From contig JAISGQ010000001.1 in NCBI GenBank assembly GCA_031262985.1, positions 688-64,687 on the forward strand: a DNA stretch of 64,000 nucleotides, given 5' to 3'. Positions within the stretch are counted from its first letter, which is position 1, and each line of letters starts with the position of its first letter. The translations under genes and the position numbers were made by a program. The stretch comes from Oscillospiraceae bacterium. GTDB lineage: Bacteria > Bacillota > Clostridia > Oscillospirales > Acutalibacteraceae. The notes under the pieces were generated by a model. It saw only the letters and a program-made list of their open reading frames with translations, was not told where the DNA came from and searched no databases. Below, piece after piece: positions 9,667 to 48,527 of the stretch.

Positions 9667-12600
9667 TTAAAAAGATACTTCAATCAGCCGCCCTAACGTA
9701 AATGAATAGATACACAGCCGCTCCGCCTCGCACCCTGTCACCTCGCTCATAGCAAAGGAGTACAGCCGCAGTTGTCCTCCATAATTCGCCGCGTAGGCGT
9801 CCGGATTTCGCTCCCTGTCAGTCTTGTAGTCGATTATAGTGAGCTTCCCGTCCTTCACAAGCACCAAGTCGCACTCGCCCTGCAGCACAATATCCTCCCC
9901 ACGCAAAATAGAGTTGCCGCCGCTCGTCTGTCCGTCCGCTTGCTCCGACTGCCCCTCCGCCTCAGGCTTTAAGTAGGAGTAGTATTCCTCCGGCAGGAGT
10001 ACGGTAAATCGCCGCTCGCGGTAGACCTCGTCCGCCGATTTTATCAGTCTGCCCGCCTCCCCCGCAAAGAAGGAGTAGATTTTTTCCAAGTCCACAACAG
10101 CCGCCTCCTCCTCGCTCAAAAAGCCGAGGGAGACCAGCCGCGTGACCTCACGCTCCGCGCTTTCGGCGGCGAGGGAGCAGTCGCACAGCTCCATAAACTT
10201 GTGCAGTGCAGTGCCTCTTTCCGCCGCGTTCATGCCGTCCTTCTGCATGAAGGACGGGCGGCGCGACAGCCCTTCAAGCGGATTCTCCCCGCCTATCTTC
10301 TTGTTGAGGGAGGTGGCGACTACCTTCGCAGGGATTTCCCGTAGTTCCCGATATGGGTATCTGTAGGCGAATTTCTCCCTCAGCTTCTGCACCTCCCCGC
10401 CGTCAACCGAGGTGGTGGTGGAGAGGGAGGTGGTGTCCTCCCCGCCTTTCGCCGCAGGAGGAGTAGCAGCAGCGGCGTACTTATCCCAATCGCCGCCCGA
10501 AACTATATTGACGCGAACCGCGCCGAACTCCTCCTTCGGCAGATGAGAGGCAGGTGTGCCGCCGAACTCCTCCTTCGGCAGATGAGAAGCAGGAGTGCCG
10601 CCGTCCTCATTCGCGGAAAGAACACACCGTTCGGGGAGCTGGCATATCTGCCGAAGGTCGTATGAGCTTCGGCTCCTCAAAATACACGCCATAATCCACG
10701 CCGCGTATCTGACAGTGCCGGAGACGGCGTAGGGGTTGACCGAATACACGCCCTCCTCGCTCCTGCATATGAGTGACGCGCTGTCGCAGATAAACTTGTC
10801 GATATTGGGGACAGATGCGGTCATTATCATTTTTTCCTTTGCCCGCGTCATCGCCACATAGAGTACGCGGATGTGTTCGCTGACCGCCTCCCTTTGGTTG
10901 ACCGCGCGTATTGCCGAGGCGGCAAACGGTCTGTAGCGGTACGCGCCGTCCGCCGTTTTCATGTCCATGCCAAGCAGATAGCGCGGGTGGAGTGACAGCC
11001 GCCCCTCCGGCTTGGAGGAGTGGTTTACTCCCAACCCCGAGAGTATGCAGACGGGGAATTCCAGCCCCTTCGACTTGTGGATGGTCATCACCGTGACTGC
11101 TCCTTTGCCGCCGAGGGAGGGGGATGGAACGGCGAGATCGTCGCCCCGTTCGGACATAATATCAATTCTTCGCATGAATTTAGACAGTCCCTTAAATCCC
11201 GACTTCTCGAACCCTGCGGCGTACTCGATAAGCAGACGCACCGAGCCGAGCCGCTCCTCTCCTCCTGCGCCTGCGCGTATAATGCTGTCGTAGGAGGTGA
11301 CAGTCAGCATCTCCGAAATCAGCCGCCCGACTGTAGATGTGACTGCCGACTGCCTGAGCCGTGCGGTAGTTTCGAGAAACTCCCTGCACTGCGCGTCTCC
11401 GTCTCCTGCCTGCATGAGAAGCGCGGAGTAGAGGCTCGCCGTTTTGCTCCTCAGGCGAATCTGCGCGAGCTTATCGGGCGAAAAGCCGAACATGGGGGAG
11501 GACAGCACGGCGAGGAGCGGAATATCGCGAAGGGGATTATCTATCACTCGAAGGTAGGAGATAATCGTGCTTATCTGCACCTTATCGAAAAATCGCTCAT
11601 CGTTGTCGCTCCTCCTTGCCGGTATGCCGACATCGGCGAGAGCGGAGACGATATTCGCCCCCGCGTCTCCCTTGACCGAAAAGAGCAGGACGCAAAAGTC
11701 GTCGGGAGTACACACGCGAAGCTTCTTGCTCTCCTTGTCGGTGACGAGGAAGCCGCCGCCTATCATTTGGCTTATCCTCTCGGCTATGTACCGCGCCTCG
11801 GATTGCTCGGCTTCGTCGGAATCCTCTGCGCCTTCCTCTCCTCCTCTCCTCTTTTCGGGGCAGAGGAGGCAGAACTCGGTGCGGTTGCTCTGGGTGTCCT
11901 GCTCCTGCGCCGACTGTGCGGAGGAGGACTGCTCCCCTGCCGACTGTGCTGTGGAGGGCTGCTCCTTCACCGATTGCGCGGAGGAGGACTGCTCCTGCTC
12001 TCCTCCTGCCGCTTGCTTTTCGGGGTAGTAGGTCGCTCCGAATTTTAGCTCGTGGGAGCTGTCATAGTCTATCTCCCCGCACTCCCTCGACATTATCTGG
12101 GAGAACACAAAGTTGGCAAATGAGGTGATTTCCTCCCTACTTCTGTAATTTTTCGATAGAATAATACGCGTAGGATAGGGAATTTCGGGGATTTGGGGTG
12201 CGGCGGAGGTGTCGGTCGGGGTGCGGGAGGGGTTCTCCTCCGACAGATGGGAGGTGGGAGGAGTGCCGTTGTCCCCCTCCGACAGAAGGGAGGTAGGGGA
12301 TGTACCGCTGTTCTCCTCCGACGGGTAGGAGGCAGGGGGAGTGCCGCCGTTCTCCTCCGACAGATAGGAGGTGGGGGGTGTGTCGCCGCCCTCCCCCGAC
12401 AGATGGGAGGTGAGAGTAGTGTCCTCCTCTGACGGGTAGGGGTAGTCGGGGTATCGGTCGAGCTTCTGCGAAAAGAGGAGGGGCATGGCGCGTCTGAACT
12501 TATATATACTCTGCTTGACGTCGCCCACGAGGAAGAAGTTGTCTCCCTCCCCAATCTCATTGCCGTAGTTGCCGCTGTCCTTTGCGATAGCGCGGAAGAT

Positions 12601-13836
12601 TAAGTCCTGCACGGGGTTAGTGTCCTGATACTCATCTATCATAATCTCATCATAGCGGGAGGAAATCTCGCGGGCTATCTCCGTTTGGCAGTACCTGCCG
12701 TCCTTCTCCTCTGCCAGCAAGCGAACGGAGTACTGCTCTAAGTCGTTAAACTCCATTATTCCCCGCTCCCGCTTGAGGCTCTCGAGGGAGGCGAGATACT
12801 GCTCGGTAACTTCGCACAGAGCCTCTATCATAGGATACTGCGCCTTCATGTCCTCCAGATACTCGCTTTCTGTAGAACAGATTGCGCCGCTAATGGAGGA
12901 GAGGAGGGAATAAGCCTGATTGACAAGCCCCAGTATCCTCCTGTAGCCCATTGCGTCCTTGGTGCTTGTTTTCTTCTTGTAGCCGCCGCCCGAAAGCAGT
13001 TCGCGAAGGGCGTCAAAATCCCCTCTCTTTGCCGCAAGGAGTATGCCCTCCGCCGTTTCCATAAAGGCGGCAATGTCCTTTAGCAGACGGCTGTCCGCTA
13101 TGCCGTATTCGGTGCAGCACTCACGCGCCTCTTTGTACATACACAGTGCCGCCTCCGCTTTCCCTGCCGCCTCGCTCAGAAGGAGGCGCGACAGCTCCCA
13201 CTCCGCAAGGGGTTTCGGGTGCTTGTACATCTCCTTGATTCGCGAGAGCAGGCGGGAGGGGAACGGGTCGGCTGTGACATACCTCTCCATTTGCAAAATG
13301 AGGGAGGTGAAGTCCTTGTCGTTCCCCGACCTGCACACATTTTCAAAGAGGAGGAGAAAGCCGCCGTTGTTTTCGCTGTCTGATAAGTAACGCTCGGTCA
13401 GCTCCTCTATTATAGAAACGCGAACGGAGGACAACTCGTTCTCCTCGCTTATTCTGAAATCGGGGGAGAGTGACAGCCTGTAGAAATTCTCCCGTATCAG
13501 CTTGCCGCAAAAGGAGTGGATAGTGCATATATCGGCATTTTGGAGGAGCAGTCTCTGCCTCATAATCCATGTGCTGTCGGGGTTTTCGAGAAGCTTTTCG
13601 TACAGCCGCCTGCTGATTCGTTCGCGCATCTCGGCGGCGGCGGCGTTACTGAAGGTAACGACCGCCAAACGGTCGGCTCCGGTTCTCTTACTCTCGTCGG
13701 GGTGAGTGAGCTTTAAAACCGCACGCTCAGACAGAACTGCGGTTTTGCCGGAGCCCGCCGCCGCCGAGACCAGCACGCTCCCGCCGTTTGCGTTTATGGC
13801 GGCATACTGCTCCTTGTTCCAGTTGAAAGCCGGCAT
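9667..13836 (-). CDS. addA: ATP-dependent helicase/nuclease subunit A (AddA), with three in-frame low-complexity repeat insertions
   Basis: UvrD-type Walker A AAGSGKT, motif III GDVKQSIYKFR, NYRS, and the C-terminal RecB-type nuclease motif IIDYKTD. It lies immediately downstream of addB. At 1389 aa it is longer than typical AddA proteins. Confidence 0.85.
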   Translation of the reverse strand: MPAFNWNKEQYAAINANGGSVLVSAAAGSGKTAVLSERAVLKLTHPDESKRTGADRLAVVTFSNAAAAEMRERISRRLYEKLLENPDSTWIMRQRLLLQNADICTIHSFCGKLIRENFYRLSLSPDFRISEENELSSVRVSIIEELTERYLSDSENNGGFLLLFENVCRSGNDKDFTSLILQMERYVTADPFPSRLLSRIKEMYKHPKPLAEWELSRLLLSEAAGKAEAALCMYKEARECCTEYGIADSRLLKDIAAFMETAEGILLAAKRGDFDALRELLSGGGYKKKTSTKDAMGYRRILGLVNQAYSLLSSISGAICSTESEYLEDMKAQYPMIEALCEVTEQYLASLESLKRERGIMEFNDLEQYSVRLLAEEKDGRYCQTEIAREISSRYDEIMIDEYQDTNPVQDLIFRAIAKDSGNYGNEIGEGDNFFLVGDVKQSIYKFRRAMPLLFSQKLDRYPDYPYPSEEDTTLTSHLSGEGGDTPPTSYLSEENGGTPPASYPSEENSGTSPTSLLSEGDNGTPPTSHLSEENPSRTPTDTSAAPQIPEIPYPTRIILSKNYRSREEITSFANFVFSQIMSRECGEIDYDSSHELKFGATYYPEKQAAGGEQEQSSSAQSVKEQPSTAQSAGEQSSSAQSAQEQDTQSNRTEFCLLCPEKRRGGEEGAEDSDEAEQSEARYIAERISQMIGGGFLVTDKESKKLRVCTPDDFCVLLFSVKGDAGANIVSALADVGIPARRSDNDERFFDKVQISTIISYLRVIDNPLRDIPLLAVLSSPMFGFSPDKLAQIRLRSKTASLYSALLMQAGDGDAQCREFLETTARLRQSAVTSTVGRLISEMLTVTSYDSIIRAGAGGEERLGSVRLLIEYAAGFEKSGFKGLSKFMRRIDIMSERGDDLAVPSPSLGGKGAVTVMTIHKSKGLEFPVCILSGLGVNHSSKPEGRLSLHPRYLLGMDMKTADGAYRYRPFAASAIRAVNQREAVSEHIRVLYVAMTRAKEKMIMTASVPNIDKFICDSASLICRSEEGVYSVNPYAVSGTVRYAAWIMACILRSRSSYDLRQICQLPERCVLSANEDGGTPASHLPKEEFGGTPASHLPKEEFGAVRVNIVSGGDWDKYAAAATPPAAKGGEDTTSLSTTTSVDGGEVQKLREKFAYRYPYRELREIPAKVVATSLNKKIGGENPLEGLSRRPSFMQKDGMNAAERGTALHKFMELCDCSLAAESAEREVTRLVSLGFLSEEEAAVVDLEKIYSFFAGEAGRLIKSADEVYRERRFTVLLPEEYYSYLKPEAEGQSEQADGQTSGGNSILRGEDIVLQGECDLVLVKDGKLTIIDYKTDRERNPDAYAANYGGQLRLYSFAMSEVTGCEAERLCIYSFTLGRLIEVSF

Positions 13837-16800
13837 TTATTCGTCCTCCTCTCTGTATTTATCGAATAGGTATCTCACTGCCTCGCTCTGCTTGAGCTTT
13901 AGGACGGAGCGTTGTCCCTGCTTGTCCTCGTTTCGGCACACGGGCTTATACTCGCAGTAGTCGCACGCGCTGTACTTCGATTTCGAGGGGGAGATGTCGA
14001 TATTTCCGTCCATGACCATCTGTCCCATCTCCCGAAGCAGTTCTCTTATGTGCCGCGCCAGATAGTCGAAGGTCTTAGCGGGAACTGCCTTTGAGCTTGC
14101 GGAAATTCCGTTTTTGGTGAGCGACACGGGGATATACTCCCCCATGAGCCGCCGTTCCATAGCCTCAAGCACGTTCATGTCGTCCACCACCATGCCGCTC
14201 ATGGTAAGCTTGCCCTTCCCCTTCTGTTTGCTGTTGGGGGAGGAGGGGGGGAGGAGAGATGCGGTAGAGGGGGTAGTCAGCTTGCTTCCCTCCTCCTGCC
14301 AGCTGTTGGGGGTGGAGGAGAGGGCGGCGGCGCGGCTTGTGTCCTCCTGTCCGCTGTTGGGGGTAGAGGATAGTGCGGCAGCGCGGCTTGCGTCCTCCGG
14401 TCCGCCGTTGGGGGTAGAGGAGGAGAGTGCGGCGGCGCGGCTTGCGTCCTCCGCCTCGGATTTGGAGGGGACGTACAGCACACCTGCGGCGCGGTACTTG
14501 CCGTCCTTGTCGGGGGCTACCGCGTTCTCCCCCTCCCCGAGCAGCTTGCCTGAGTTACATATCAAATCGAGGTAAATAGGCATTTGCAGGTTCAGCCCGC
14601 TCATGGTCTCCGCTAAACTGAACTCCTTCTTCCCCGTCTTGTAGTCGACCACACGCACATAGGGCTTCCCGTCTATCACACAGGCGTCCACCCTGTCAGC
14701 CTTGCCGCCTATGGTTATAGTGCCGCCGTCAAGCTGCAGGGTCAGCGGCTTTATGTCGCCGCTCCTGCCTATTTCAAGCTCGAAGGCGACAGGGCGAAAC
14801 GCACTTTGTGAGAACTCCGCCACAAGGTGCTGTAATACATCCGTGACACTGCCCGAAAGCCGCTTGACGAGGTAGAGAAACCGCGCGCTTTTATCCCGCT
14901 CACCGCCCATGGTAATCTCTATGTAGCTATCAATATAGCGCGACACAAGTCCGCGCAGTCCGCCTCCCTCGGAGATGGCGTGAAGCTCCTTGACACTATG
15001 CTCGCGAAGTGCATTTTCGAGGACGTAGTGTACCGTGTTTCCGTAGGTTATGGGGTTAAGCTCTGCCTTTCTCCTGCCGCTTGCGCCTAAGGTGTACTTG
15101 CAGAAGTAGGAGAAGGGACATTGGAAGTACTGCTCTGCACGCGAGGGGGAGATGTACATATTCTTTCCGTAAAGCGCGGAGCGAAGGGCTGGGTCGGTTA
15201 TCCTCCTGCTCATATTCACAGCGGAGGACTGCTCCACTGCCGACAGCTTTCGGCTTACCTCCTCCTCGTTTTGCAGTGCCGCTCGGAGCGAATACGCCCT
15301 TTCATCCTTCTCTCCGTAGCAGACGCACAGCTGTTCAAACGCGGAGTTGGCACTCTCCGACAGCTCGAAGGGGGAGAGGAGTTCTATTTTCCTGTGGTTT
15401 TTGATTAACCGCTCTGTTTCGTATATTATCTCCGACGGCGAATTACTCTCCCTGCCGCCGCTCACGGGGTAGGAGATATACAGCCGCTCGGAGGCGCACA
15501 TCATGGCATTGTAGCACAAAAGGCGTTCCTCCAGCATTACCTGCTCCGCCGGCTCGGCTACCTCTAAATGATGAGCGATGAGGGCGGCGCGTTCGCTGTC
15601 TGTGAATACTCCGCCGCCCGATACGGATGCGGGGAACACGCCGTCAGCCGCGCCTAAAATGAACACAGCCTTCGGGGAGGAGGGGCGGATTCTGTCCGCC
15701 GCGCCGAAGCAAATCTCATCCAAGCCCTGCGGAATCTGCCCCACCGAACACTCGGAGAGCATGACGGAGAACAGCTCGGAGTACTCCTCCCTCGAGAGCC
15801 TGCCGTCGCCGATAATCGAGTGGAGCTGTTCGAGTATGTCTATAAGAACCTCCCATATCTGCGCCTGTATCTGCGCGTCAGATGGGGGGAGGAGGGAGCA
15901 TAGCCGCTCGATACACTCCGCACTGCCCGCTCGCTCTAAGAGGGAGAATATCGCCTTTGCCGCCTGCGTTCCGCTTGCGCCTTTCATCTCCTCTGAAAAG
16001 GAGAGATACACCTCGCAGAATCTTCGGCGAACGCAGTTGATTCTCGATAGAAGCTGCTTGTCCTCCTCTGTCAGCTCCGGCTCGAAGCCTCTCGGGTGGG
16101 AGGTAAATTCCATCCTCCACTGCGCGGCAGATATGCCCCACAGAAGGACGTACTCCTCGACCTCCGCGATAAGACGCTCCGTGTCGCTATTGCCGCTCTT
16201 GCCGCCATTTTCAGAGAGGGAGGAGAGGTCAATCATCCCGGTCTTTAGAAGGACGATAATATCGTCGGCGGAGGATAAAGTAAGCGCGGTCTCAACAAAC
16301 CGAATGAGCGGGGAGCAGTCCACGGGGCTTCTCCTGTCGATAAAACAGGGGATACTTTGCATATCCATGGCGTTCGAGAGCAGTTCGCTGTAGTCGCCCT
16401 CGTTCCGCGCAATTATTGCTATATCGCGGCAACGGTAGCCCTCTTCGCGGAGCAGCCGCCTGCACTCCGCCGCCGCGAACTGCACCTCCTGATACCTGTC
16501 ACGAGCGGCGTACACCGAAATTTCCTCCGCCTCGCCCTCGTATGCCTCCTCCTGCCGCGTGAATATTGAGCGATTGAGGAAGGCTATCGCCTTCGATTTG
16601 TAGCGCGGCAGGCAGGGCAGCACCTCGGGCACGGCTACGGGTACTCCGCGCCGCCGTGCCTCAGCTATCAGCTTTGCCGCAGTTTTGCGAACGGGAGAAA
16701 ACAAGCCCGCGCCGCCCTCCCGCTCATTCTCCCCGTCGGAGCAGAGTGTGACTACGCACTGTGCCGCCTGCGCGGCTATCTCGCCGATTACTGTCAGCTC

Positions 16801-17532
16801 CTGCTTTGTAAGCCCTCTGAAGGAGTCGAAAATCACGGTTTTTCCCTCGAAATACCTATGCTCCTTTAATATGCCTGCCAGCCGCGTAAGCTCGTCGAGG
16901 GGGTCGAGTGCCGAACGCGCCGTTATCCCCTCAAACGCCGAGTATATCAGCGACAGCTCGGAGAGCTTCACGCGAAGCGGCTCGGACTGCACCTCCCCAG
17001 CTGTGGCGAGGAGCATATCGGGGGTGATGCCGCACATTTTAAACTCCTTGACCGCGTGGAGGATGTGGGAGATGAAGCTCGCGCCCGACTTCTTCTTCCT
17101 GTAGAGCGTGAGGCTGTCGGCGGTCTCCCTCAGCGAGAGGGCTACCGCCGCCGCACGCCCTGTGTCGGAGAGGCGCGGGCGGGAGTTGCCCGAAAAGCGG
17201 CTTCCCAGCTCCTCCGCAAGGCGGGAGAAGCTGAATATCTCAATATTTTCGATTCCCTTAGCCGAAAGGCGAAGGAGCATTTTTTTCTCTGTCTCGAAGG
17301 AGTACTGCTCGGGAATGATGAGCACTGTGCGCGGGGCTTCTGCTACTGCCGCACCGACGGGTACTCCGGCGACTGAGCCGACTGCGCTTGTTGCTGTAGC
17401 TGAGCCGACCGAGCCGACTGCCGCTCCCTCTGCTCCTCCTGCGACTGCTCCCTCTGAGGCGAGCTGTGCCGCAAGCTCCCGCGCGAAGTGGGTTTTTCCT
17501 GTTCCCGCACGTCCGTAAATTAATTTAAGCAT
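13837..17532 (-). CDS. addB: ATP-dependent helicase/nuclease subunit B (AddB), with in-frame repeat insertions
   Basis: Walker A GRAGTGKTH, nuclease motif VVDYKTGKK, and Fe-S cysteines CPFSYFC and CDYCEYKPVC. Its stop abuts the addA start. Confidence 0.85.
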   Translation of the reverse strand: MLKLIYGRAGTGKTHFARELAAQLASEGAVAGGAEGAAVGSVGSATATSAVGSVAGVPVGAAVAEAPRTVLIIPEQYSFETEKKMLLRLSAKGIENIEIFSFSRLAEELGSRFSGNSRPRLSDTGRAAAVALSLRETADSLTLYRKKKSGASFISHILHAVKEFKMCGITPDMLLATAGEVQSEPLRVKLSELSLIYSAFEGITARSALDPLDELTRLAGILKEHRYFEGKTVIFDSFRGLTKQELTVIGEIAAQAAQCVVTLCSDGENEREGGAGLFSPVRKTAAKLIAEARRRGVPVAVPEVLPCLPRYKSKAIAFLNRSIFTRQEEAYEGEAEEISVYAARDRYQEVQFAAAECRRLLREEGYRCRDIAIIARNEGDYSELLSNAMDMQSIPCFIDRRSPVDCSPLIRFVETALTLSSADDIIVLLKTGMIDLSSLSENGGKSGNSDTERLIAEVEEYVLLWGISAAQWRMEFTSHPRGFEPELTEEDKQLLSRINCVRRRFCEVYLSFSEEMKGASGTQAAKAIFSLLERAGSAECIERLCSLLPPSDAQIQAQIWEVLIDILEQLHSIIGDGRLSREEYSELFSVMLSECSVGQIPQGLDEICFGAADRIRPSSPKAVFILGAADGVFPASVSGGGVFTDSERAALIAHHLEVAEPAEQVMLEERLLCYNAMMCASERLYISYPVSGGRESNSPSEIIYETERLIKNHRKIELLSPFELSESANSAFEQLCVCYGEKDERAYSLRAALQNEEEVSRKLSAVEQSSAVNMSRRITDPALRSALYGKNMYISPSRAEQYFQCPFSYFCKYTLGASGRRKAELNPITYGNTVHYVLENALREHSVKELHAISEGGGLRGLVSRYIDSYIEITMGGERDKSARFLYLVKRLSGSVTDVLQHLVAEFSQSAFRPVAFELEIGRSGDIKPLTLQLDGGTITIGGKADRVDACVIDGKPYVRVVDYKTGKKEFSLAETMSGLNLQMPIYLDLICNSGKLLGEGENAVAPDKDGKYRAAGVLYVPSKSEAEDASRAAALSSSTPNGGPEDASRAAALSSTPNSGQEDTSRAAALSSTPNSWQEEGSKLTTPSTASLLPPSSPNSKQKGKGKLTMSGMVVDDMNVLEAMERRLMGEYIPVSLTKNGISASSKAVPAKTFDYLARHIRELLREMGQMVMDGNIDISPSKSKYSACDYCEYKPVCRNEDKQGQRSVLKLKQSEAVRYLFDKYREEDE

Positions 17533-17710: not shown

Positions 17711-17786
<76 letters not shown>

Positions 17787-18195: not shown

Positions 18196-18783
18196 ATGAA
18201 ACGTATCATCACACTATTTCTCGCAGTCCTTCTCCTTTTCTCCTTGGTCTCTTGTGGAGGAGACACCGAAGGCGGTTCTTCCGCACCTGATGTTGCAAGC
18301 AATTCGGCTACACCCGACGAGCCAACTCCCGCAGATCCCGATGATGTGAGCATGATTAACGGCACACTGTACGCGGTTGTCGCTGAGGACGAAGTTCCTA
18401 CGAGAGATTTCGGCTACGAGGAGGGCAAATTAACTCCCGAAAGAGTTGCCGAGGCACTCTCCGCATGGACAGGACTGAATTTCAGCATCACCTCTGAGTT
18501 TGACGCGGAGTACGGAACTTATATTATCACTTGGAAGTCCGACTCCTCTCTCGCGACAGGTCAGCCTCCCATGGAGCAGAACGAGGAGTTCACATTCTAC
18601 GACGCTGTGACACTGCGCTTCTTCATGCTCAACAGCCTGTGCCGCACTATCAGAGAGAATATCGGCGAGTACGATATTTACTACGCGGTCGAAGGCGGCG
18701 ATTTGAACGAAATGGAGCTGGGAGTTGACTTCAACCCCGGCATGGCGTACAACAGAAACGAAAGTCCTAAGGTGTTAGGATAG
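18196..18783 (+). CDS. lipoprotein, function unknown
   Basis: The signal peptide has a lipobox (MKRIITLFLAVLLLFSLVSC-GGD). Confidence 0.55.
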   Translation: MKRIITLFLAVLLLFSLVSCGGDTEGGSSAPDVASNSATPDEPTPADPDDVSMINGTLYAVVAEDEVPTRDFGYEEGKLTPERVAEALSAWTGLNFSITSEFDAEYGTYIITWKSDSSLATGQPPMEQNEEFTFYDAVTLRFFMLNSLCRTIRENIGEYDIYYAVEGGDLNEMELGVDFNPGMAYNRNESPKVLG

Positions 18784-19073: not shown

Positions 19074-19616
19074 CTACCCCAGCTTTATCTCAAAGCTGTA
19101 GTTCTTCAAGTCCCCAAATTTTGCGGTGTCATGCTCCTCCACGTCTATCGGTTGGTCTGAACCGATATACACCACAAACATAGAATCATCGGGAGGATAC
19201 GCAATCCATATCTTATACTCCCCCTTTGCGGAGGCGGGAACATCCGATAGCTCGCAAGTTTCCCCTACGGGATACTTCTCCCGCAGTTCATCGCTGCCTT
19301 TCGCGTCGTGGAACATTATCTCTATGCGGTATTTCCCAAGCGAGCCGTCGTTTTCAATGAGCCGCTCTCCCCTAAAGACAGGTTCGTCCTCCTCCATCAT
19401 CCTGACACTGTAGCCCGCATTTTCGGAGTACAGCCAGCCCATCGTCACTCTGATTGCCTGCTCCCCCGAAGAGCTTTGTGTCAGCTCGACTTTCCTCACT
19501 CCGTCGGGATGAGTGTCGCCTAACACCCTCACCGCAAAGACTGCCGCTATTGATATGAGTACAACTGCTACTCCTATAGCGGAAAGGAGTAGTATTTTCT
19601 TAGTGCTTTTCTTCAT
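19074..19616 (-). CDS. membrane-anchored hypothetical protein
   Basis: 180 aa with an N-terminal TM/signal anchor (KKILLLSAIGVAVVLISIAAVFAV). Confidence 0.45.
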   Translation of the reverse strand: MKKSTKKILLLSAIGVAVVLISIAAVFAVRVLGDTHPDGVRKVELTQSSSGEQAIRVTMGWLYSENAGYSVRMMEEDEPVFRGERLIENDGSLGKYRIEIMFHDAKGSDELREKYPVGETCELSDVPASAKGEYKIWIAYPPDDSMFVVYIGSDQPIDVEEHDTAKFGDLKNYSFEIKLG

Positions 19617-20910: not shown

Positions 20911-21133
20911 GTAACTACCCCTTTCATTCTATTGCTTCACTAACCTCCACATTATAGCACACATTCTGATAAAGGAGTAGCAAAACAATTGCTTTTTATA
21001 TTAATTAATCGCAAATTAACCATAGCCTGATTTCGTAGGGAGAATAGTCAATATCTACGAGATAAATACTTTTATTTGAATATTTCGTAATGCATGAGCA
21101 TAATAGTGATTTTCAAAGCCATAATATGCATAT

Positions 21134-21154
21134 AATTACGAAAATATCGTAATT
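21134..21154. promoter_or_regulatory. operator-like inverted repeat AATTACGA-N5-TCGTAATT just upstream of the island promoter
   Basis: The arms are a perfect 8 bp and end 5 nt before the -35 box. Further TCGTA/TACGA half-sites occur at 21033, 21056 and 21085. Confidence 0.4.
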
Positions 21155-21158
21155 ATCG

Positions 21159-21187
21159 TTGACTTTTCTCTTGAATGGATTTACTAT
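21159..21187 (+). promoter_or_regulatory. sigma-A type promoter of the two-gene island
   Basis: TTGACT (21159-21164), a 17-nt spacer, TACTAT (21182-21187). The GGGGGA RBS sits 7 nt before the ATG at 21221. Confidence 0.55.
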
Positions 21188-21220
21188 AGTACCAAAATAT
21201 TATATCATGGGGGAATAGCT

Positions 21221-22495
21221 ATGTTATTGATGTTCAAAGTGAAAAATTACACATCATTTAAGGATGAGACTATTTTAGACATGAGAGCAACATCATATGT
21301 GCAGCACCCATCTCATGTAATAAATTTAAGCGATAAGCTAAGCTTGCTTAAAACCAATGCAATATACGGCGCAAATGCGTCAGGTAAATCAAATTTTGTT
21401 TCTGCTATGTTCTTTTTTGAGCAATACATTTTTTCTCAATTCATATATAAAAAAGAAGATGAGGATTTTAATTTAGATGAAAATAAGCCAAGGATGAAAT
21501 TAGAGCCGTTTACTCTTTCAAATGACGTAAATAACGCTTCTGAGTTTGATATCATTTTTCTGCATGGGGGAAAGCAAATACAATATGGATTTGAATGTAC
21601 TCCAAATGAAGTTCTTAATGAATGGTTATTTATAGATGATAAAAAAGTGTTTGAACGCAGTGGAAAGGAGTTGTCATTTGGCTCTAATTATAAAAAAGCA
21701 TTAAGTGATTATAAAAAGTTACCTGAGGAAAGACTTTATGTTGCTGTGCTTGATTATTTTCTTGATAGCGAAACCAAGAAAACAATTCTTGGCGATTTTA
21801 TTGCTTTCTTTGCTAATAAATATAATGTTTTCACTGAAATTTTATTTGAATCAACTGTAAAGGGGTTAGCCGGTATGGTTGGATTTTCCCCAAAGCTGGT
21901 AACCAACAAGTCCTATCGTAAAAAGGTAGAACACTATCTCAGATTAATTGATGTTGGTATTAAACGTCTCGACATTAAAACAGAAATCAAATTAAATCCG
22001 CAAACTGGTAGAAAAAAGAAAGAAAAAGTTGTATGTACAGTGCATGATATTTATGATGAAGAAGGAAATGCTGTTGGCGAAAAGCTGTTTGATTTCTCGC
22101 AAGAATCAAGCGGCACGCTCCGATTTTTTATGTATATACAAAATATTATTGAGATGATTTCCGGCGGCGGAGTGTTTGTTGTTGACGAAATGTCTGCGAG
22201 ACTTCATCCGCTTCTCACTAAGCTTATTGTCGATCTGTTTTGTTCCGAACAAAACAAGAAGGCACAGCTGATTTTTACTACTCACGACATCTCCCTGCTC
22301 AACTCTAATCAGTTTCGGCGAGATGAGGTGGTGTTTATAGATAAGAATGTGCGTGGTGAATCGAACCTATTTGCACTTTCTGATTTAAAAGTTCGCGAGG
22401 ATGCAACCTTCAGTAAAGATTATTTACAGGGTAAATACGGAGCTATTCCCATCTTTAATTACGATGAGTTGACAGGCGGTGAGTCTGGTGAGTAG
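21221..22495 (+). CDS. ABC-type (AAA_21/AAA_15-like) ATPase, AbiLi / AriA-like defence ATPase
   Basis: N-terminal KVKNYTSFKDE. Walker A GANASGKSN. Signature-like SSGTLRFF. Walker B VFVVDEMSARLHP. H-loop FTTHD. An insertion of about 270 aa separates Walker A from the signature motif, as in SMC/OLD-type ATPases. Confidence 0.75.
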   Translation: MLLMFKVKNYTSFKDETILDMRATSYVQHPSHVINLSDKLSLLKTNAIYGANASGKSNFVSAMFFFEQYIFSQFIYKKEDEDFNLDENKPRMKLEPFTLSNDVNNASEFDIIFLHGGKQIQYGFECTPNEVLNEWLFIDDKKVFERSGKELSFGSNYKKALSDYKKLPEERLYVAVLDYFLDSETKKTILGDFIAFFANKYNVFTEILFESTVKGLAGMVGFSPKLVTNKSYRKKVEHYLRLIDVGIKRLDIKTEIKLNPQTGRKKKEKVVCTVHDIYDEEGNAVGEKLFDFSQESSGTLRFFMYIQNIIEMISGGGVFVVDEMSARLHPLLTKLIVDLFCSEQNKKAQLIFTTHDISLLNSNQFRRDEVVFIDKNVRGESNLFALSDLKVREDATFSKDYLQGKYGAIPIFNYDELTGGESGE

Positions 22496-23138
22496 AACTC
22501 AATTGTCACCACGACGTTTAATTGAAACGAAGCCAACAAACATTGGACGAATTATTATATTTTGTGAGGGCGAAACCGACCAATACTATTTTGATTATTT
22601 TGCAGAGATCATTAATAAAAACAAGTACACTGATATTGAAGTCGTTTTGGAAACTGCCAATGGAAATGCTCAGACTGTCTTAAATCTTGCTAAGAAATTC
22701 ATGAATGACGAGAAATATAACCGCAAGTATAGTAACTATGGTAAGTATTTGGCGTTTGATTGTGATGACCCATCTAATATACAAGAAGTGATACGAGCCG
22801 CCAAAGATTATGAACTTCTCATATCAAACCACTTCTTTGAAACGTGGCTGTTAATGCATTTCGAAGATATTAATACAAAGTTGACAAGACAAGCAATATA
22901 CAACAGTCTATCTAAACATCTAAACGCGGAATACAAAAAGGCGAACAAAGGACAGGTTCGTGAAATTATCCAAAACGGTAGTGTTGAAAAGGCAATAGAT
23001 CACGCAAAACTACTTGAAAAAAGATATAAGGATGAAGCAAAATCTATTTTTACAAACATTAGTGAAATGAATCCGTATACAAGCGTTCATACGCTTGTTG
23101 AGCAATTTATGATTGAGATTTCTTCCAAAGCAAAATAA
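22479..23138 (+). CDS. RloB-like / TOPRIM (OLD-family nuclease-type) protein, AbiLii-like
   Basis: It overlaps the ATPase gene by 17 nt. Motifs are IIIFCEGETDQYYF (TOPRIM Glu), AFDCDD (DxD) and LISNHFFETWLLMHFED, which match my recollection of the RloB family (PF13707) pattern. An alternative GTG start lies at 22488. Confidence 0.7.
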   Translation: MSLVSRTQLSPRRLIETKPTNIGRIIIFCEGETDQYYFDYFAEIINKNKYTDIEVVLETANGNAQTVLNLAKKFMNDEKYNRKYSNYGKYLAFDCDDPSNIQEVIRAAKDYELLISNHFFETWLLMHFEDINTKLTRQAIYNSLSKHLNAEYKKANKGQVREIIQNGSVEKAIDHAKLLEKRYKDEAKSIFTNISEMNPYTSVHTLVEQFMIEISSKAK

Positions 23139-23283
23139 CGTCCCGTGTTTTTCTTACTTATAAGCAAACGCCCTATGTGAGAGACGTCTGTTTTAAAAAT
23201 TTTAATAAATCTTTCAATAAATATTGCAAAACTATTAATGATTTGCTACAATAAAGTACAAATTACTCAAAGGAAGTGCAAAT

Positions 23284-24871
23284 ATGAACGACCAATTGTT
23301 TTTCCTGCTCGCAATGGCGGCGTATATGCTTGTTATCGTGCTGATAGGCGTATTCACGGCCAAGAGAGCAAACAAGAATTCCGACGAATTTTTCATCGGA
23401 GGACGCAGACTCGGTCCGTGGGTAGCGGCAATGAGTGCCGAGGCATCGGATATGTCCGGCTGGCTTCTCATGGGCTTACCCGGAGTAGCATACTTCACCG
23501 GAGTTGCCGACGCTTTCTGGACTGCTTTCGGTCTCGCGCTGGGAACTTATATCAACTGGCTTATCGTAGCAAAGCGGCTGAGGAAGTACTCCGTAGTCGC
23601 GGGCAACGCGATAACCGTTCCCGACTTCCTGTCACAGCGTTTTAAGGAAAAATACAAGATAATACTTGTTATCGCCTCTCTCTTTATCCTTGTGTTCTTC
23701 ACCGTGTACGGCCGGTTCGTGCTTTGTGACGGTAGGAAAGCTGTTCTCCGCCCTCTTCGGCTTTGAATATAAGTGGATGATGGCTATCGGTGCGGTGTTT
23801 GTTATAGCTTACACCTTCCTCGGCGGATTCATGGCGGAGTCCATATCCGATTTCCTTCAGGCAATTGTCATGTTTGTCGCTCTGATTGCTGTTCTCGGCT
23901 TCGGAATCTTCGCCGCAGGCGGAGTAGAAACAGTAGCCGCTAACATCTCCTCCATCCCGGGATTTGTCGATTTCTTCGGCATGGCAGCTCCTGTTACACA
24001 GGATGTAGGAGGCGTAGCTACACAGGTAGTGGAAAACGGCGTTCCCCTCTTCGGAGAGTCAACACCGTACGCGCTTCTCACGATTCTCTCCACAATGTCA
24101 TGGGGTCTCGGCTACTTCGGTATGCCGCAGGTTCTCCTCCGCTTCTTTGCTATCCGCAAGGTTAAGGAGATTCGCCGCTCGCGCATAATCGCGATAGTGT
24201 GGTGTGTCATCTCCCTCGCGGTAGCTGTATGTATCGGACTTATGGGTCGTTCGCTTTTCCCAACTGCTCATCTCACATCGGGCGGCGCGGAGAATATCTT
24301 CATCACATTCGCGACCTTCCTCTTCCACCCGATAGTTGCGGGAATCGTAATGTCGGGCATACTCGCCGCCGCAATGAGTTCGTCAGACTCCTATCTCCTT
24401 ATAGCGGCGTCGGCGGTATCTAAGAACGTATTCAAGGGATTAATCTATAAGAAGGCTACAGAGAAGCAGATTATGCTTGTAACCCGTATAGCTCTCGCAG
24501 CTATCGCCATTATTGGAATAATCATAGCTCTCGACGAAAACAGCGTAATATTTAATATTGTAAGCTTTGCGTGGGCGGGCTTCGGCGCGACCTTCGGACC
24601 TATCATGCTCTTCTCCCTCTTCTGGAAGAGAACCAACACGGCGGGTGCTGTCGCGGGTATGCTTTCGGGCGGAATTACGGTGTTCGTATGGAAGCTTGTT
24701 GTCCGCGAATACTGCGTCGATTGGGGACTTTCCTTCCTCAACATCTACGAGCTTCTCCCCGCGTTCCTCCTCTCCTGCCTGTTCATAGTGGTCGTTTCGC
24801 TTATCACAAAGCGTCCGAGCAAGGCGATAGAGGAAGAGTTCGAGCTTGCAAAGACTATCGAGATGGAGTAG
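23284..24871 (+). pseudogene. putP: sodium:proline symporter (SSS family), interrupted by a +1 frameshift near 23710
   Basis: The ORFs 23284-23766 and 23666-24871 are the N- and C-terminal parts of one SSS transporter. Removing one G of the GG at 23710-23711 restores ...LFILVFFTVY-AGSCFVTVGKLFSALFG.... Confidence 0.6.
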
Positions 24872-29148: not shown

Positions 29149-29556
29149 TTATTCTGCTGTATCCTCTTTCTCCCGTATCTGCTCGAGCACTTCCATGAGC
29201 TTTTTCGGGATAGGCAGTCCGCTCCTGGCGCAGTTTTCCAGTATGCTTATCCCCTCATTGGCTACAAGGAAAGCAATCACCAGCGTGCGTAGTGAGCCGC
29301 CGAGGTTGGTAGCCTCGTCCACTATGTGAGCTACCGCCACTATGGCAAAGTAGAGGATTTTCTTGAGTATGCCCACAAATCCCGAGCGGGATGAGAGTGC
29401 CTTGTTGACCACCGCCGCGACAATGCCTGTTGCGTAGTCGATAATCACGAAGGCAATCAGCGCGTACAGCCACATATCCGCGCCGCCGAATAGGAAGGTG
29501 CAGAGGGAGGCGAGGAGGGCGGCAGCTCCCTTACAGAAATTTATGTGGTCGCTCAT
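29149..29556 (-). CDS. phage holin (holin_4/TcdE-like family)
   Basis: 135 aa with 3 TM segments. The motif IIDYATGIVAA is typical of this holin family. It lies directly downstream of the endolysin with a 4-nt overlap. Confidence 0.7.
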   Translation of the reverse strand: MSDHINFCKGAAALLASLCTFLFGGADMWLYALIAFVIIDYATGIVAAVVNKALSSRSGFVGILKKILYFAIVAVAHIVDEATNLGGSLRTLVIAFLVANEGISILENCARSGLPIPKKLMEVLEQIREKEDTAE

Positions 29557-30260
29557 TTTGCCACCGCCTTTTGAAGTGCGGAGCGTGTAGCCGGACCTAC
29601 GCTTCCGTCAACCTCTAACTTCTGCGCCTTCTGAAACGCCTTGACCGCCGCGAGCGTCTTGCTGCCGAACTTGCCGTCCACCGCCAAATCTTTGTAGGTG
29701 AGCTGCTTCAAGTGCCACTGCACCCACTTAACTGAGTTTCCACTCGTACCCTGCTTTACTGCCTTTGTCGGCGCGGCATACGGGCATTTCGGCTTAGAGG
29801 TACTGCCGCCGCTTGCGCTCGGAGCTTTCCCGCCGAACGTAGACACCGTCTTGTAACTCCCGCTCGTCTTGTCGTAGAAGTGCTTAGGACTTCGCAAATC
29901 CACGTGGACGAACGTCTTGTAGAGGATAATGCCCGTGAATCCGCACGTCTCCGCCAGCTTTGCCGTCTCCTTTGGAGTGCGCCCCTTGATGTTAATATCA
30001 GCCGCAGAACCCGTCATGTGGTTGGAGTTTGTAGACGCGCCGTCCACCTCCGCGTTGTGCTTCTTGCAGCGGTAGCCGCTTCCCGTGACGTTGATTGACA
30101 CGTTCCCAGCAAGCTTTCGGAGCTGCTCGAGTTTGTCAATGAGCTTGCTCTCAATTTTTGTGGTAGAACAGCAACCTTTGCCCTTGCAGTCGAACTCCGT
30201 TGACTTGAAATTCGCACTCAGCTTAGTTGTAACGCCTCGTTTGTATGTTTTTTCTGCCAT
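29553..30260 (-). CDS. endolysin: peptidase M15 (zinc D-Ala-D-Ala carboxypeptidase-like) + PG_binding_1 domain
   Basis: Zinc-ligand pattern SGYRCKKHN...HMTGSAADI...HVD. The C-terminal motif is LAVDGKFGSKTLAAVKAFQKAQKLEVDGSVGPAT. Confidence 0.75.
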   Translation of the reverse strand: MAEKTYKRGVTTKLSANFKSTEFDCKGKGCCSTTKIESKLIDKLEQLRKLAGNVSINVTGSGYRCKKHNAEVDGASTNSNHMTGSAADINIKGRTPKETAKLAETCGFTGIILYKTFVHVDLRSPKHFYDKTSGSYKTVSTFGGKAPSASGGSTSKPKCPYAAPTKAVKQGTSGNSVKWVQWHLKQLTYKDLAVDGKFGSKTLAAVKAFQKAQKLEVDGSVGPATRSALQKAVAK

Positions 30261-32307: not shown

Positions 32308-34659
32308 TTAATCTACTGGAAATGAATAGTCGAGCGGAATCCACACATTGGATGAAGTTGCTATCCCTACGCCGCCGCTCTCGAGTCTCCCAAAGGTAAC
32401 TGCACCATCTGTCCTCACTCTGCCTAAATATCCGCTGTAGCTACTCGAGTGTCCGTTAATGTCAACCTCTATTGTTGGTCTGAAACCTTCGGGCAATATA
32501 AACATAGGGTAATCCGTGGTGCTTGCCGCGATAGTATTGGTAGCCGTGCAAGCTCCCGTAACATATACTGTATTGCCGATTTTTCTGTAACGAGGAGCGG
32601 TAGTGTCGCTGTATGCCTCAAAATTATTTTGAAACTCCGTGACCTCAATCCATCCTGTATCTTGCTGACTTTGGAACACGCTCCACGCCGTCCATGCGGT
32701 ATTGATATATACCCTTGTGTAGATGGCATTTCCGTCCCCAAACGCCGTGAATCGCTGAATAAGGTTGCCTCCTGCGGCGGCTAATACTTCGAGCAGTCCC
32801 GCTCCTGCGCCTGCTGGAGCGTTATCTGATGCGGTTTGAGCGGTGTATAGGTGGATTCCCGTATCGTTAATGTTGTCGAAATCTTCGCCGTCTACCGTTC
32901 TCACATAGCCCATAACATTGTAGCCGTTCATCCCGACATCGCCTGTCACGTCCCATGCGCGTGTGGGAGCGGGATTGAATACGCCCCAAAATTCTTGACG
33001 TTCGCCGTCTACGTATTTTCTGAGATACCTTAAAGTGGGAATTCCGCGCGGCAGAGTTGCAGTTACGGTGTTGCTCGAAAGCTTATCCGATATGGTAAAC
33101 TGGATATTATACGTAAAATCAGCGTCAAAGCTTGCGAAACCATCACTATTAAAGGTAATCTTCGTGTCGGTAACGGTAATATCCTCGGCAGGGATAGAGG
33201 TGTAATCGCTGTAGTTTTCCTCATTGTTTTTTTTGCATCGGTATTGAAGTGATACAAGCCCATTTTTGTTCACGTCTGCAATGAGGATTTCGGAGATATT
33301 GGCACTGATTTCAGCCTGTGTAAGAGCGTCAACTCCGTTCGCACGGCGGATTGCGTAGGAATCAATCCATATGTCTACATATGCGGACACCTCGACATTT
33401 TGCGTCAGTACTGCGGAATAGCCCCTGCTATCTGTGACCGTGACCGTTATAACCTGTGTACCGCTTTTGGATATGCTCCCCATATCAATAGTAGTGCCGC
33501 TCCCGCTCTTTGACACATCCGCGCATACAGATGAGTAAGAGACGATGCTTGCTCCATTTTGAGCGGTAGCCTCGTCACATACGATTGTGAGCGACGAATA
33601 ATTTTGTACGAGCTTTGAACTGTCTCCCGTAATACCTAAGGTAGTCGCGTTGGTGTCAGAAAACGAGAATCCGCTGAATAACGGCGCGGAGTTTGCCGCC
33701 GTGGTCTGAACCGTACATGGAAATGTAAACGGGCCTCCCATAGAGCTGCTGCCGTTGAGGGTCTGCAGCGACAATGTCGCGGTAAACGATTTCACCGAGG
33801 ACATAGCGGCAAGAAGCGCGGTTCTCTGCGCGGCAGTCAATGTTATTGTTCGCGTGGCTGTTCCTGCGCTCCAGCTTATACCGGAGATTGTGAATATAAC
33901 TGAGTTGCCGTTCATGACGCTCAAATTATGCGTATAGGAGGCGTTCATTACGGTGGTGTTGAGCGTGATTGTCACCGTGGAATTATCCGCTGTGATTGTG
34001 TCCGCGCTGTTTATTACTGTGCCGCCAAGTGTTTTTACCAAGAAAGCGGCAGACTGCCCCTCCACTTGATTGCTTTTTTTCCGCGCCTTAACTTTAACAG
34101 TGTATTGCGTGTTAGATGATAACCCCGTGATGGTGTACGACTTCGCTGTGCCCTCCGTTGAATCAAACAAAGTCCACGTGCTGCCGTTGTCGGTGCTGTA
34201 ATACCACCTGTCACAAGTAGTTGAGGAACTTGCAGAAACTACTATGCTTGACACGGTGACGCTCGAATAAGTCATGGAGACAGTCGGCGCGGTTCGGTCT
34301 ATGTTAGTCAGTGCCATACTGCCGCCGTACTCGCTTGCCGTCCCGTAGTAGACGGCGGTCGAAAAGCCGATAGAAACTGTTTTCTTGCCGTCCGTGTTAT
34401 GCGTAACATTTATAGTGCCTGATATGCTGCCTTTTTTCGCGGGAAATACTTCCGTGTCCCACGATGTAGCACCTTTGTTGTAAACCGTAGTGCCATTGAT
34501 GGTTACTTTCGTGGGAGCGATGCTGTAAAAATTTGAACTTCCTCCCGTTGATGTGAGTGTCCACGAGAGGGCGGATGTATTGCTTGCGGAGTTTACTTTT
34601 TCCGTTACAACAAGTTGTAGGTATCGTCCTTGGTATGTATTACTCTTGTATGTTGCCAT
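32308..34659 (-). CDS. tail receptor-binding/host-specificity protein (DUF859-like N-terminus, FN3-like domain)
   Basis: 783 aa and Ser/Thr-rich. It has an FN3-like segment (APTVSMTYSSVTVSSIVVSASS...YTITGLSSNTQYTVKVKA). It lies downstream of the tail-associated lysin. Confidence 0.5.
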   Translation of the reverse strand: MATYKSNTYQGRYLQLVVTEKVNSASNTSALSWTLTSTGGSSNFYSIAPTKVTINGTTVYNKGATSWDTEVFPAKKGSISGTINVTHNTDGKKTVSIGFSTAVYYGTASEYGGSMALTNIDRTAPTVSMTYSSVTVSSIVVSASSSTTCDRWYYSTDNGSTWTLFDSTEGTAKSYTITGLSSNTQYTVKVKARKKSNQVEGQSAAFLVKTLGGTVINSADTITADNSTVTITLNTTVMNASYTHNLSVMNGNSVIFTISGISWSAGTATRTITLTAAQRTALLAAMSSVKSFTATLSLQTLNGSSSMGGPFTFPCTVQTTAANSAPLFSGFSFSDTNATTLGITGDSSKLVQNYSSLTIVCDEATAQNGASIVSYSSVCADVSKSGSGTTIDMGSISKSGTQVITVTVTDSRGYSAVLTQNVEVSAYVDIWIDSYAIRRANGVDALTQAEISANISEILIADVNKNGLVSLQYRCKKNNEENYSDYTSIPAEDITVTDTKITFNSDGFASFDADFTYNIQFTISDKLSSNTVTATLPRGIPTLRYLRKYVDGERQEFWGVFNPAPTRAWDVTGDVGMNGYNVMGYVRTVDGEDFDNINDTGIHLYTAQTASDNAPAGAGAGLLEVLAAAGGNLIQRFTAFGDGNAIYTRVYINTAWTAWSVFQSQQDTGWIEVTEFQNNFEAYSDTTAPRYRKIGNTVYVTGACTATNTIAASTTDYPMFILPEGFRPTIEVDINGHSSSYSGYLGRVRTDGAVTFGRLESGGVGIATSSNVWIPLDYSFPVD

Positions 34660-37056: not shown

Positions 37057-37766
37057 CTCGGCACAATTTCAATACTCTCGACATTGCCTACCCATGCTAT
37101 AGGGTTATCGCCCGATGCAAATTTTGGGAAATTAGGAGTGTGCATATTGTTATTTTGATTTACTATCCCTTTATACGCAATCATAGCCTCAGAATCAAGC
37201 TCTATGTACTCGTCAACACCCGAAAACAGATACGACCCCGCTCCGACCGTGAGTGTAATATCGCCGCTCCCTGTGATTTTGATATACGGATACGAGGTAA
37301 ACTGTTCCGCGTTCTGTATAGTATCGGGTTCTGAGAGCGTTATTGTGTTCTGTCCGTCAAAAGAGTATCTAAACGGTTTGCAATTAAACGACAGTGATGT
37401 GTTCCCGATTTGTCGAAGCTCCTGCTCTATCTCCGTTCCGTCGCTATAGGCGGCGTATCGGAAGTGGTCAGTATCGTAGCTATCATAGAGCCTAAAATAT
37501 CCAGATTCGGACAACAACCAATTTTTTATATTGTAGGCAAGTTCAGTAAAATTTTGCTCGCCGCTTGCGATAGCTGACATACCATACGTTATGGTTATGT
37601 TATTAAATCGCCCGTTATCTATAATAAGGTCGCCGCTTCTTCCGGGGATATTTTGAAAAATCATATCTCTCGAAGGAGCGTTAAATGAGTTTTTATTGGC
37701 AATGTACAGCCCTAAATCGAGAGAGGAAGTGTCCTTAAACGACAGCCACGGCAATGTGTCCATCAT
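37041..37766 (-). CDS. distal tail protein (Dit)
   Basis: 241 aa, located between the tape measure and Tal. It has a Sipho_tail-like N-terminus (LPWLSFKDTSSLDLGLYI). Confidence 0.6.
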   Translation of the reverse strand: MMDTLPWLSFKDTSSLDLGLYIANKNSFNAPSRDMIFQNIPGRSGDLIIDNGRFNNITITYGMSAIASGEQNFTELAYNIKNWLLSESGYFRLYDSYDTDHFRYAAYSDGTEIEQELRQIGNTSLSFNCKPFRYSFDGQNTITLSEPDTIQNAEQFTSYPYIKITGSGDITLTVGAGSYLFSGVDEYIELDSEAMIAYKGIVNQNNNMHTPNFPKFASGDNPIAWVGNVESIEIVPRWCCL

Positions 37767-48307: not shown

Positions 48308-48527
48308 GTTCTATCGCGTGGCACTCTCGGCACAGGGTTTCGAGATTGTCCTCGCCTAAAGCTATGTGAGGTATATCTATGTTGTTTGGTGTTAGGTGCT
48401 GCTTGTGGTGGACTATCTCCCCCGGCGAACCGCACCGCACACATAACCCCATGTCGCGGCGATATATATATCCCCGCGTTTCTTTCCACGCTTTGGATTG
48501 ATAAAAGACTTTGGCAAACTCTCTCAC
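48237..48527 (-). CDS. HNH endonuclease (packaging-associated)
   Basis: CVRCGSPGEIVHHKQHL...NLETLCRECHAIEH. It lies next to the terminase genes, as in cos-type HK97-like phages. Confidence 0.75.
   Translation of the reverse strand: MREFAKVFYQSKAWKETRGYIYRRDMGLCVRCGSPGEIVHHKQHLTPNNIDIPHIALGEDNLETLCRECHAIEHEGVSPTVKGLMFDSEGNLAKRS

Follow-up and report, generated by a model that had tools for sequence, protein, structure and literature searches.

A putative AbiL-type two-gene anti-phage module in an AT-rich tract of an Oscillospiraceae genome

Between a DUF362/4Fe-4S gene (PF04015, 3.7e-53) and a sodium:solute symporter (SSF, putP-like) gene on contig JAISGQ010000001.1 of an Oscillospiraceae metagenome-assembled genome (MAG), there is an AT-rich tract that holds two genes on the same strand. 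These genes, referred to here as the cassette, are the subject of this analysis, and "the window" is the whole stretch of 64,000 nucleotides that was analysed. The first open reading frame (ORF1) encodes an ATPase of the AbiLi family and the second (ORF2) a protein of the AbiLii/RloB family (coordinates of all features are in Table 1). The G + C content (GC) of the tract is 0.337, compared with 0.53 and 0.52 in the 2-kb flanks, and the values at third codon positions (GC3) agree: both cassette genes have 0.32, versus 0.71 for DUF362 and 0.61 for SSF. An earlier note on this DNA had described an abrupt drop in composition, an island of two genes, and a neighborhood without an integrase, restriction-modification (R-M) genes, or other defence genes. 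All three descriptions hold, the last in that none of these is recognisable within ~6 kb of the cassette. Based on its sequence matches, we regard the pair as an AbiL-type (RloA/RloB-type) two-gene anti-phage module, in other words, a real system and not a new kind of system.

ORF1 matches the Pfam families AAA_21 (4.5e-26; 93 bits, gathering score 27) and AAA_15 (2.2e-8), and the PADLOC AbiLi model (PDLC02335; 3.7e-84, 280 bits). It also matches the AriA model (2.1e-26), which covers the same ORF1 residues and the same profile span as AAA_21. The ATPase motifs are intact: Walker A (G50-ANASGKS-N58), Q73, a signature-like Q294-ESSGT, Walker B (D322-E323), and the H-loop H355. The Walker A stretch G50-N58, Q73, QES-GT at 294-299, D322-E323, and H355 are unchanged across 28 sequences, including the lactococcal homolog. 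Both cassette genes are intact. Selection was measured on abiLi, for which the proportion of nonsynonymous differences (pN) is 0.11-0.15 versus 0.72-0.78 for synonymous differences (pS), with synonymous sites saturated; this gene is therefore under strong purifying selection. Sequence and profile searches of the ATPase against chains in the PDB retrieved PtuA alone, at 0.0029, which is not significant, and comparison of the ATPase profile with P2 Old (using hhalign) gave a motif-level match only.

The start of the second gene required some attention. Read from its first GTG, ORF2 spans 22479..23138 and encodes 219 aa, the length previously given. However, the close homologs all begin MGRTQLSP..., aligned with the GTG at 22488, and the identical NCBI protein is annotated at 216 aa with the same start. 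The overlap with ORF1 is thus 8 nt (GTGAGTAG) and not 17 nt. The Pfam RloB family aligns with ORF2 over model positions 1-194 of 195 (6.8e-29; 101.9 bits, gathering score 31.5), and the PADLOC AbiLii model also matches it (4.7e-19); there was no match to the DUF4435 or AriB models at E <= 1. The profile searches that the earlier note had proposed therefore returned AAA_21/AAA_15 and RloB in Pfam, and AbiLi and AbiLii in PADLOC. Among 1.84 billion cluster representatives we found 1257 relatives of RloB at E <= 1e-3, and among the matches listed the full-length relatives are mostly ~190-250 aa. Given this, and the near-complete coverage of the Pfam model, 216 aa is a typical RloB length, and the suggestion that this partner is compact can be set aside.

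The RloB motifs are E27-G-x-T30-E31, D91-x-D93, S113-N114, E118, W120, and H124. In an alignment of 73 diverse RloB sequences (25% mean identity), G28, Y34, D91, D93, W120, A169, and P196 are invariant, and conservation is at least 90% at E27, T30, E31, F90, N114, F117, E118, H124, and K151. All 73 relatives match both the RloB and the AbiLii models. A search seeded with the lactococcal RloB gave two proteins, and the alignment was not widened. The motif strings quoted for the two proteins in the earlier note (GANASGKSN, QESSGTLRFF, VFVVDEMSARLHP, FTTHD, CEGETDQYYF, FDCDD, and ISNHFFETWLLMHFED) are all present in the translations.

The two genes are adjacent on one strand and, by their 8-nt overlap and single conserved promoter, constitute one operon. 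The promoter had been put forward as the pair's own and near consensus. The first part stands and the second carries little weight, because the site scores 9/12 and promoter-like sites are not enriched in the AT-rich stretch (14 vs. 10.5 +/- 2.9 in shuffles). What makes it credible is conservation: TTGA, TACT, and their spacing are kept in seven unrelated contexts despite the saturation of synonymous sites. The conserved upstream block comprises, in order, a dyad, TTGAC(T), a spacer of 17-18 nt, TATACT/TACTAT, and a TGGAGG-type ribosome-binding site. The dyad occurs once in the window (chance expectation, 0.12 matches). ACGAAA is unchanged across the seven contexts, three of which (the window, L014, and L103) have a perfect dyad. 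It is a candidate operator or UP-like element; no DNA-binding domain is recognisable in either cassette protein.

Alignment of the DNA with other genomes indicates that only ~21125-23138 of the tract is conserved. This unit begins ~95 bp ahead of the ATG, and downstream its conservation ends at the rloB stop codon. The remainder is ordinary AT-rich intergenic DNA. Searches around the cassette for a target-site duplication or for terminal repeats, inverted or direct, gave nothing convincing, and the cassette has no mobility gene. Among 185,579 species genomes, the identity of DUF362 relatives does not exceed 74%, and neither the SSF gene nor the cassette lies near any of them; the exact insertion junction is therefore not definable. 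An Rfam scan of the cassette matched no RNA family, and antisense ORFs within it are at most 59 aa and unsupported.

Table 1. Features of the window and genomic contexts of homologous cassettes
Feature	Position or locus	Strand	Basis or remark
AT-rich tract	20945..23283	none	Between DUF362 gene and SSF/putP-like gene; composition
Extra half-site-like copy of the dyad, GAATATTTCGTAAT	21078-21091		Direct half-site repeat, family D16
Dyad TTACGAAAATATCGTAA (TTACG-N7-CGTAA)	21136..21152	none	7 nt upstream of -35 hexamer
Sigma-70-type promoter TTGACT-17-TACTAT	21159..21187	+	Consensus scan 9/12; conservation
Ribosome-binding site GGGGGA	21209..21214	+	6 nt before ORF1 ATG; TGGAGG in homologs
abiLi-type ABC/AAA_21 ATPase gene, 424 aa	21221..22495	+	Pfam, PADLOC, motif conservation
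abiLii/rloB-type gene, TOPRIM-like nuclease candidate, 216 aa	22488..23138	+	GTG start; Pfam, PADLOC, AlphaFold2 model
Prophage: endolysin	29553-30260		Prophage start
Prophage: tail protein	32308-34659		
Prophage: tape measure	37763-39895		
Prophage: large terminase	45852-47504		
Prophage: HNH	48237-48527		
Lar-family anti-restriction protein	50508-50873	-	PF14354, 9.1e-12
Prophage: tyrosine integrase	57845-59017		
Context: solitary among housekeeping/metabolic genes	Window, L003, L019/L109		
Context: inside pilus-sortase cluster	L106		Solitary class
Context: beside YhcG_C fragment and DUF6414	L008		Small variable genes
Context: beside nucleotidyltransferase pair NTP_transf_2 + NTase_sub_bind (small variable genes)	L016		
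Context: hsdM-hsdS-[pair]-hsdR type I R-M operon	L014 4901-14169, Acetivibrio cellulolyticus JH556653.1		Pair 72% identical; YgjP-like gene after
Context: beside GmrSD_N and AAA_15/DUF3696 ATPase	Locus of RloB protein assigned by NCBI to Anaerotaenia torta		
Context: 1.7 kb downstream of 545-aa large serine recombinase	L103 1402-6639, IMGVR_UViG_3300029731_000110		Cassette 69-78% identical

Proteins identical to the pair are already public at NCBI, from an Oscillospiraceae MAG, under the names "ATP-binding protein" and "RloB family protein." Beyond these, hundreds of 90%-identity clusters hold pairs that are 78-81% (ATPase) and 65-72% (RloB) identical, and the named sources of these clusters are Lachnospiraceae, Oscillospiraceae, Ruminococcus, Dorea, Clostridium, Acetivibrio, and Anaerotaenia. 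The clade is tight: the proteins are 424 aa and 212-216 aa long, and every sampled locus with an intact rloB keeps both the pair sizes (424 aa plus 212-215 aa) and the 8-nt overlap. Such pairs are very common in gut Clostridia and abundant in metagenomes from the gut. The cassette has a GC of 31-40%, in hosts whose flanking DNA is 36-49% at the other loci and ~52% in the window. Because the composition is deviant and the same cassette sits in ~10 unrelated contexts (the number of distinct contexts sampled), horizontal spread between genomes is supported, in line with the acquisition that the earlier note had proposed.

That homologs would be associated with defence genes is a claim that survives in part. 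Examples of defence or mobile settings are the R-M operon, the GmrSD_N locus, the nucleotidyltransferase pair, and the prophage end, and in about half of the sampled contexts the cassette is solitary. The defence-island association is real but partial, and the module is self-sufficient and often alone. In the viral example, the cassette lies <250 bp from the end of a 42-kb contig predicted to be viral (IMG/VR). The lactococcal homolog pair (L002) is likewise at the end of a prophage, proPhi7, after the lysin gene. One of the solitary loci (L003, 8267-12469; its ATPase cluster is labelled Ruminococcus sp. at NCBI) has short fragments of genes on either side of the cassette (Sulfatase, 243 aa; Glyco_hydro_3_C, 253 aa; MFS_2, 144 aa), which suggests that the cassette there lies in a decayed or rearranged carbohydrate-utilisation locus.

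The arrangement in A. cellulolyticus is the classical "restriction-linked ORF" layout, and it raises the question of whether the pair is an accessory of type I R-M systems, for example, a back-up that acts when restriction is blocked. The copy in the window would then be an orphan and may be inert alone. Type I R-M loci gave the RloB family its name, and in A. cellulolyticus the homologous pair is flanked by hsdS and hsdR. Furthermore, the prophage in the window encodes an anti-restriction protein of the Lar family, and Ocr, likewise an anti-restriction protein, triggers PARIS, which is analogous in architecture (PMC13064643). However, just one of the ~10 sampled contexts is inside an R-M operon, and in solitary contexts the cassette retains its own conserved promoter and is under purifying selection. 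For lactococcal AbiL, a cloned two-gene fragment suffices (PMC13064643). Finally, Pfam searches found no hsd genes in 9.6-28 kb of the window (the remainder of the 64 kb was not scanned for hsd). Embedding in a type I hsd locus is seen only for the A. cellulolyticus homolog. Overall, we consider such an accessory role to be very unlikely.

A lineage found on 14 contigs bears on a different explanation. In it, rloB is cut after ~17 codons (MGRTQLSPQRLSETKSKRGI*) and the 424-aa ATPase gene is intact (L107, L108, 8268-9138). The cut gene is followed by unrelated sequence, one frame of which reads ...GYTDMRKSIDGL...LFCGRRCDRLKAL...; read by eye, this is like an IS66 accessory protein, or an IS66-like insertion. 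The lost rloB and the retained ATPase are consistent with RloB as the harmful partner. They also fit decay of a selfish toxin-antitoxin (TA), or addiction, module, in which RloB is the toxin and the ATPase the neutraliser, and which persists by post-segregational killing or stabilisation of the DNA around it, without a dedicated role against phage. Insertions that stand alone among housekeeping genes, which are common, point the same way, as does the NetFlax study, in which AAA (D29) and RloB (D44) proteins fall in a type II TA network and one pair was validated by toxicity and neutralisation (PMC10440598). On the other hand, the lactococcal founder aborts phage infection (PMC13064643), and neutralisation alone would need far less than an ABC ATPase of 424 aa that is under strong purifying selection and whose motifs for ATP binding and hydrolysis are fully conserved. 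In addition, the ATPase resembles the sensor ATPases of PARIS, Septu, and Gabija (PADLOC). A purely selfish module is therefore unlikely in our view. It should be noted that TA behavior and defence are compatible and not mutually exclusive.

The effector is a candidate TOPRIM-type nuclease. In published work the RloB family has been assigned to the OLD-type TOPRIM group. A first AlphaFold2 (AF2) model of RloB, based on 43 sequences that are mostly ~70% identical, had a predicted local distance difference test score (pLDDT) of 64.7, and its Foldseek matches were meaningless. A second model (mcc5f5db4c28d), based on the diverse 73-sequence alignment, reached a pLDDT of 93.4. In this model the protein comprises an N-terminal alpha/beta domain with the EGxTE and DxD signature of OLD-type proteins and a C-terminal helical domain. 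The core order is b-a-b-a-b-a-b, with E27 (of EGxTE) after b1 and D91/D93 at the end of b3, so the Glu and DxD motifs stand in TOPRIM order on the predicted core. The hhalign comparison placed EGxTE on LLVEGKTE of P2 Old. Ten of the 73 relatives match the OLD-like_TOPRIM model, and some RloB relatives also match TOPRIM-containing GajA models (best 6.9e-7) and the mad4 and RT-Toprim models. Sequence and profile searches of RloB against PDB chains found nothing, and a Foldseek search of BFVD with the model retrieved only another RloB-like phage protein. The first 20 residues, which are conserved in the close clade, are modelled at lower confidence (pLDDT 68-79).

Considering all of the above, the cassette probably acts as an AbiL-type abortive infection module, in which an ATPase sensor/neutraliser controls a TOPRIM-type nuclease toxin, RloB. 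One promoter drives the translationally coupled abiLi-rloB operon. In an uninfected cell an ATPase oligomer would keep RloB inactive. A phage-derived cue would then alter the state of the ATPase in an ATP-dependent manner, and the released RloB would act as a metal-dependent nuclease, most likely on host tRNAs or the translation apparatus (as do PARIS AriB and P2 Old) and less likely on DNA (as does GajA). The infected cell would halt growth before phage release. What the two proteins do (sensor/neutraliser and effector), what triggers them, what RloB acts on, and the resulting phenotype are inferred from relatives. Lactococcal AbiL aborts phage infection after transcription (PMC13064643), and AbiLii of F. 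nucleatum is toxic in E. coli (PMC3985639). An RloB-type toxin and AAA ATPase from Clostridium algidicarnis were validated as a TA pair (PMC10440598). In PARIS, a phage protein is sensed by the ATPase AriA, which then sets free AriB, a TOPRIM tRNase (PMC13064643, PMC11464382).

It is also possible, although we favor it less, that the same sensor/effector architecture has an effector that degrades phage or host DNA, like GajA of Gabija. GajA is a DNA endonuclease (NetFlax paper, PMC10440598), and several RloB relatives match the GajA TOPRIM-containing models noted above. In contrast, the best-studied relatives, PARIS AriB (a separate TOPRIM protein) and P2 Old (fused), cut tRNA with their TOPRIM domains (PMC11464382; bioRxiv 10.64898/2026.07.10.737580), and Old was reported to be a tRNase with no detectable cleavage of dsDNA (2026 preprint, bioRxiv 10.64898/2026.07.10.737580). 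The post-transcriptional action of lactococcal AbiL (PMC13064643) also fits a block of translation better than it fits destruction of DNA. Our guess is that tRNA is somewhat the more likely target.

Several observations count against the abortive-infection model proposed here. About half of the sampled contexts lack a defence neighbor. Regarding the TOPRIM assignment, the hhalign match between RloB and P2 Old is confined to a 22-column motif (E 0.004, probability 8%), Foldseek with the pLDDT 93.4 model found no solved structure in the PDB at E <= 1e-3, and OLD, GajA, and AriB chains are absent from the best 50 matches. Regarding control by the ATPase, F. nucleatum AbiLi failed to neutralise AbiLii in trans, and lactococcal AbiLii is non-toxic in E. 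coli (Dy et al. 2014, PMC3985639), so a neutraliser role for the ATPase is not general or not simple. The DNA-cutting relatives of GajA type weigh against tRNA as the target. Finally, the mechanism of the AbiL family is argued from relatives, and the clade described here is known from sequence alone.

A tailed prophage occupies ~29.5-59.1 kb of the window and begins ~6.4 kb downstream of the cassette, and it encodes a Lar-family protein (Table 1), both in agreement with what had been reported. Beyond its integrase is a weak tRNA-like match (59031-59107, 30.5 bits), which may be a remnant of the prophage attachment site. A more elaborate proposal, which we think rather unlikely, combines three elements: RloB would be a structurally separate TOPRIM-like branch, given that Foldseek matched the confident model to no solved structure; the cassette would be a guard that senses phage anti-restriction proteins such as the Lar-family protein of the neighboring prophage; and the dyad would serve in autoregulation. 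If true, the guard role would explain why the same cassette is found within type I R-M operons. Autoregulation via TTACG-N7-CGTAA is a possibility, although it is weakened by the lack of a recognisable DNA-binding domain in both cassette proteins.

With regard to the immediate neighbors, the symporter gene is read as two overlapping ORFs (23284-23766, SSF positions 1-100; 23666-24871, SSF positions 102-406). The split between positions 100 and 102 indicates a frameshift, and a separate Logan assembly of run SRR14710920 shows the identical split. On the other side, genes for an AddA/AddB-type helicase-nuclease are at 9667-13836 and 13837-17532 (minus strand), with tRNA-Met beyond them at 17711-17786. 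Two ORFs without a Pfam match (18196-18783 and 19074-19616) lie between this region and the DUF362 gene.

Little changes for the field as a result of this analysis, because PADLOC models and Pfam already detect the pair, and "RloB family" is already the name of its second protein at NCBI; as the earlier note had stated, the broad architecture is already described. The value is practical, in that the gut-Clostridia clade would be a convenient model for how AbiL, an ABC-ATPase plus TOPRIM system, functions, being abundant, with near-constant gene lengths and strong purifying selection. Available for it are a structural model of RloB with high confidence, an allele in which the toxin is knocked out naturally, and a defined cassette of 2 kb that includes the promoter and dyad with the two coupled genes. 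Residual interest lies in the lack of a Foldseek-detectable RloB relative, the conserved dyad, and the link to type I R-M beside a Lar-encoding prophage.

The OLD family (P2 Old, class 2 OLD, and Gabija GajA) shares the ABC ATPase and the TOPRIM EGxTE/DxD motifs, with weak profile links. However, these nucleases fuse the ATPase and TOPRIM in one polypeptide, whereas here there are two genes, and their structures were not retrieved by Foldseek with the RloB model. Gabija adds the GajB helicase, a partner that the pair lacks. Based on the split genes, and as no UvrD-like gene adjoins the cassette (AddAB, at 9.7-17.5 kb, is housekeeping), Gabija and the fused class 1-2 OLD systems were rejected. 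PARIS has a split ABC ATPase, whose AriA model matches ORF1, and a separate TOPRIM-type effector, and it supplies the likely scheme of sensing and release. In contrast, ORF2 has no DUF4435 or AriB match, on which basis PARIS was rejected, and RloB is 216 aa whereas AriB is ~35 kDa; according to a review, AbiLii and AriB are not similar in sequence and their structures superpose poorly (PMC13064643). Thus, of the "AbiL/PARIS-like" label initially applied to this pair, AbiL is retained and PARIS is an architectural analogy only. The NetFlax AAA(D29):TOPRIM_OLD(D44) TA pairs have the same domain pair, and the D44 node is an RloB homolog.

The RloA/RloB genes of Campylobacter jejuni type I R-M loci similarly pair RloB (PF13707) with an AAA ATPase, a likeness strengthened by the A. 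cellulolyticus pair between hsdS and hsdR; the pair in the window differs in adjoining DUF362 and SSF genes, with no R-M gene. The closest counterpart is AbiL of Lactococcus lactis, which has the same gene order, with the AAA_21-type ABC ATPase first and the RloB-family protein second. Compared over their full lengths (BLASTP) with the "abortive phage resistance" pair of the Lactococcus prophage proPhi7, which was used here in place of the pND861 prototype, the two proteins have E values of 3e-31 (26% identity) and 6e-20 (30% identity), respectively. Whereas lactococcal AbiL is carried on a plasmid or prophage, the pair described here is chromosomal in a gut Oscillospiraceae MAG and belongs to a tight clade (65-81% identity) that has a conserved promoter and dyad of its own.

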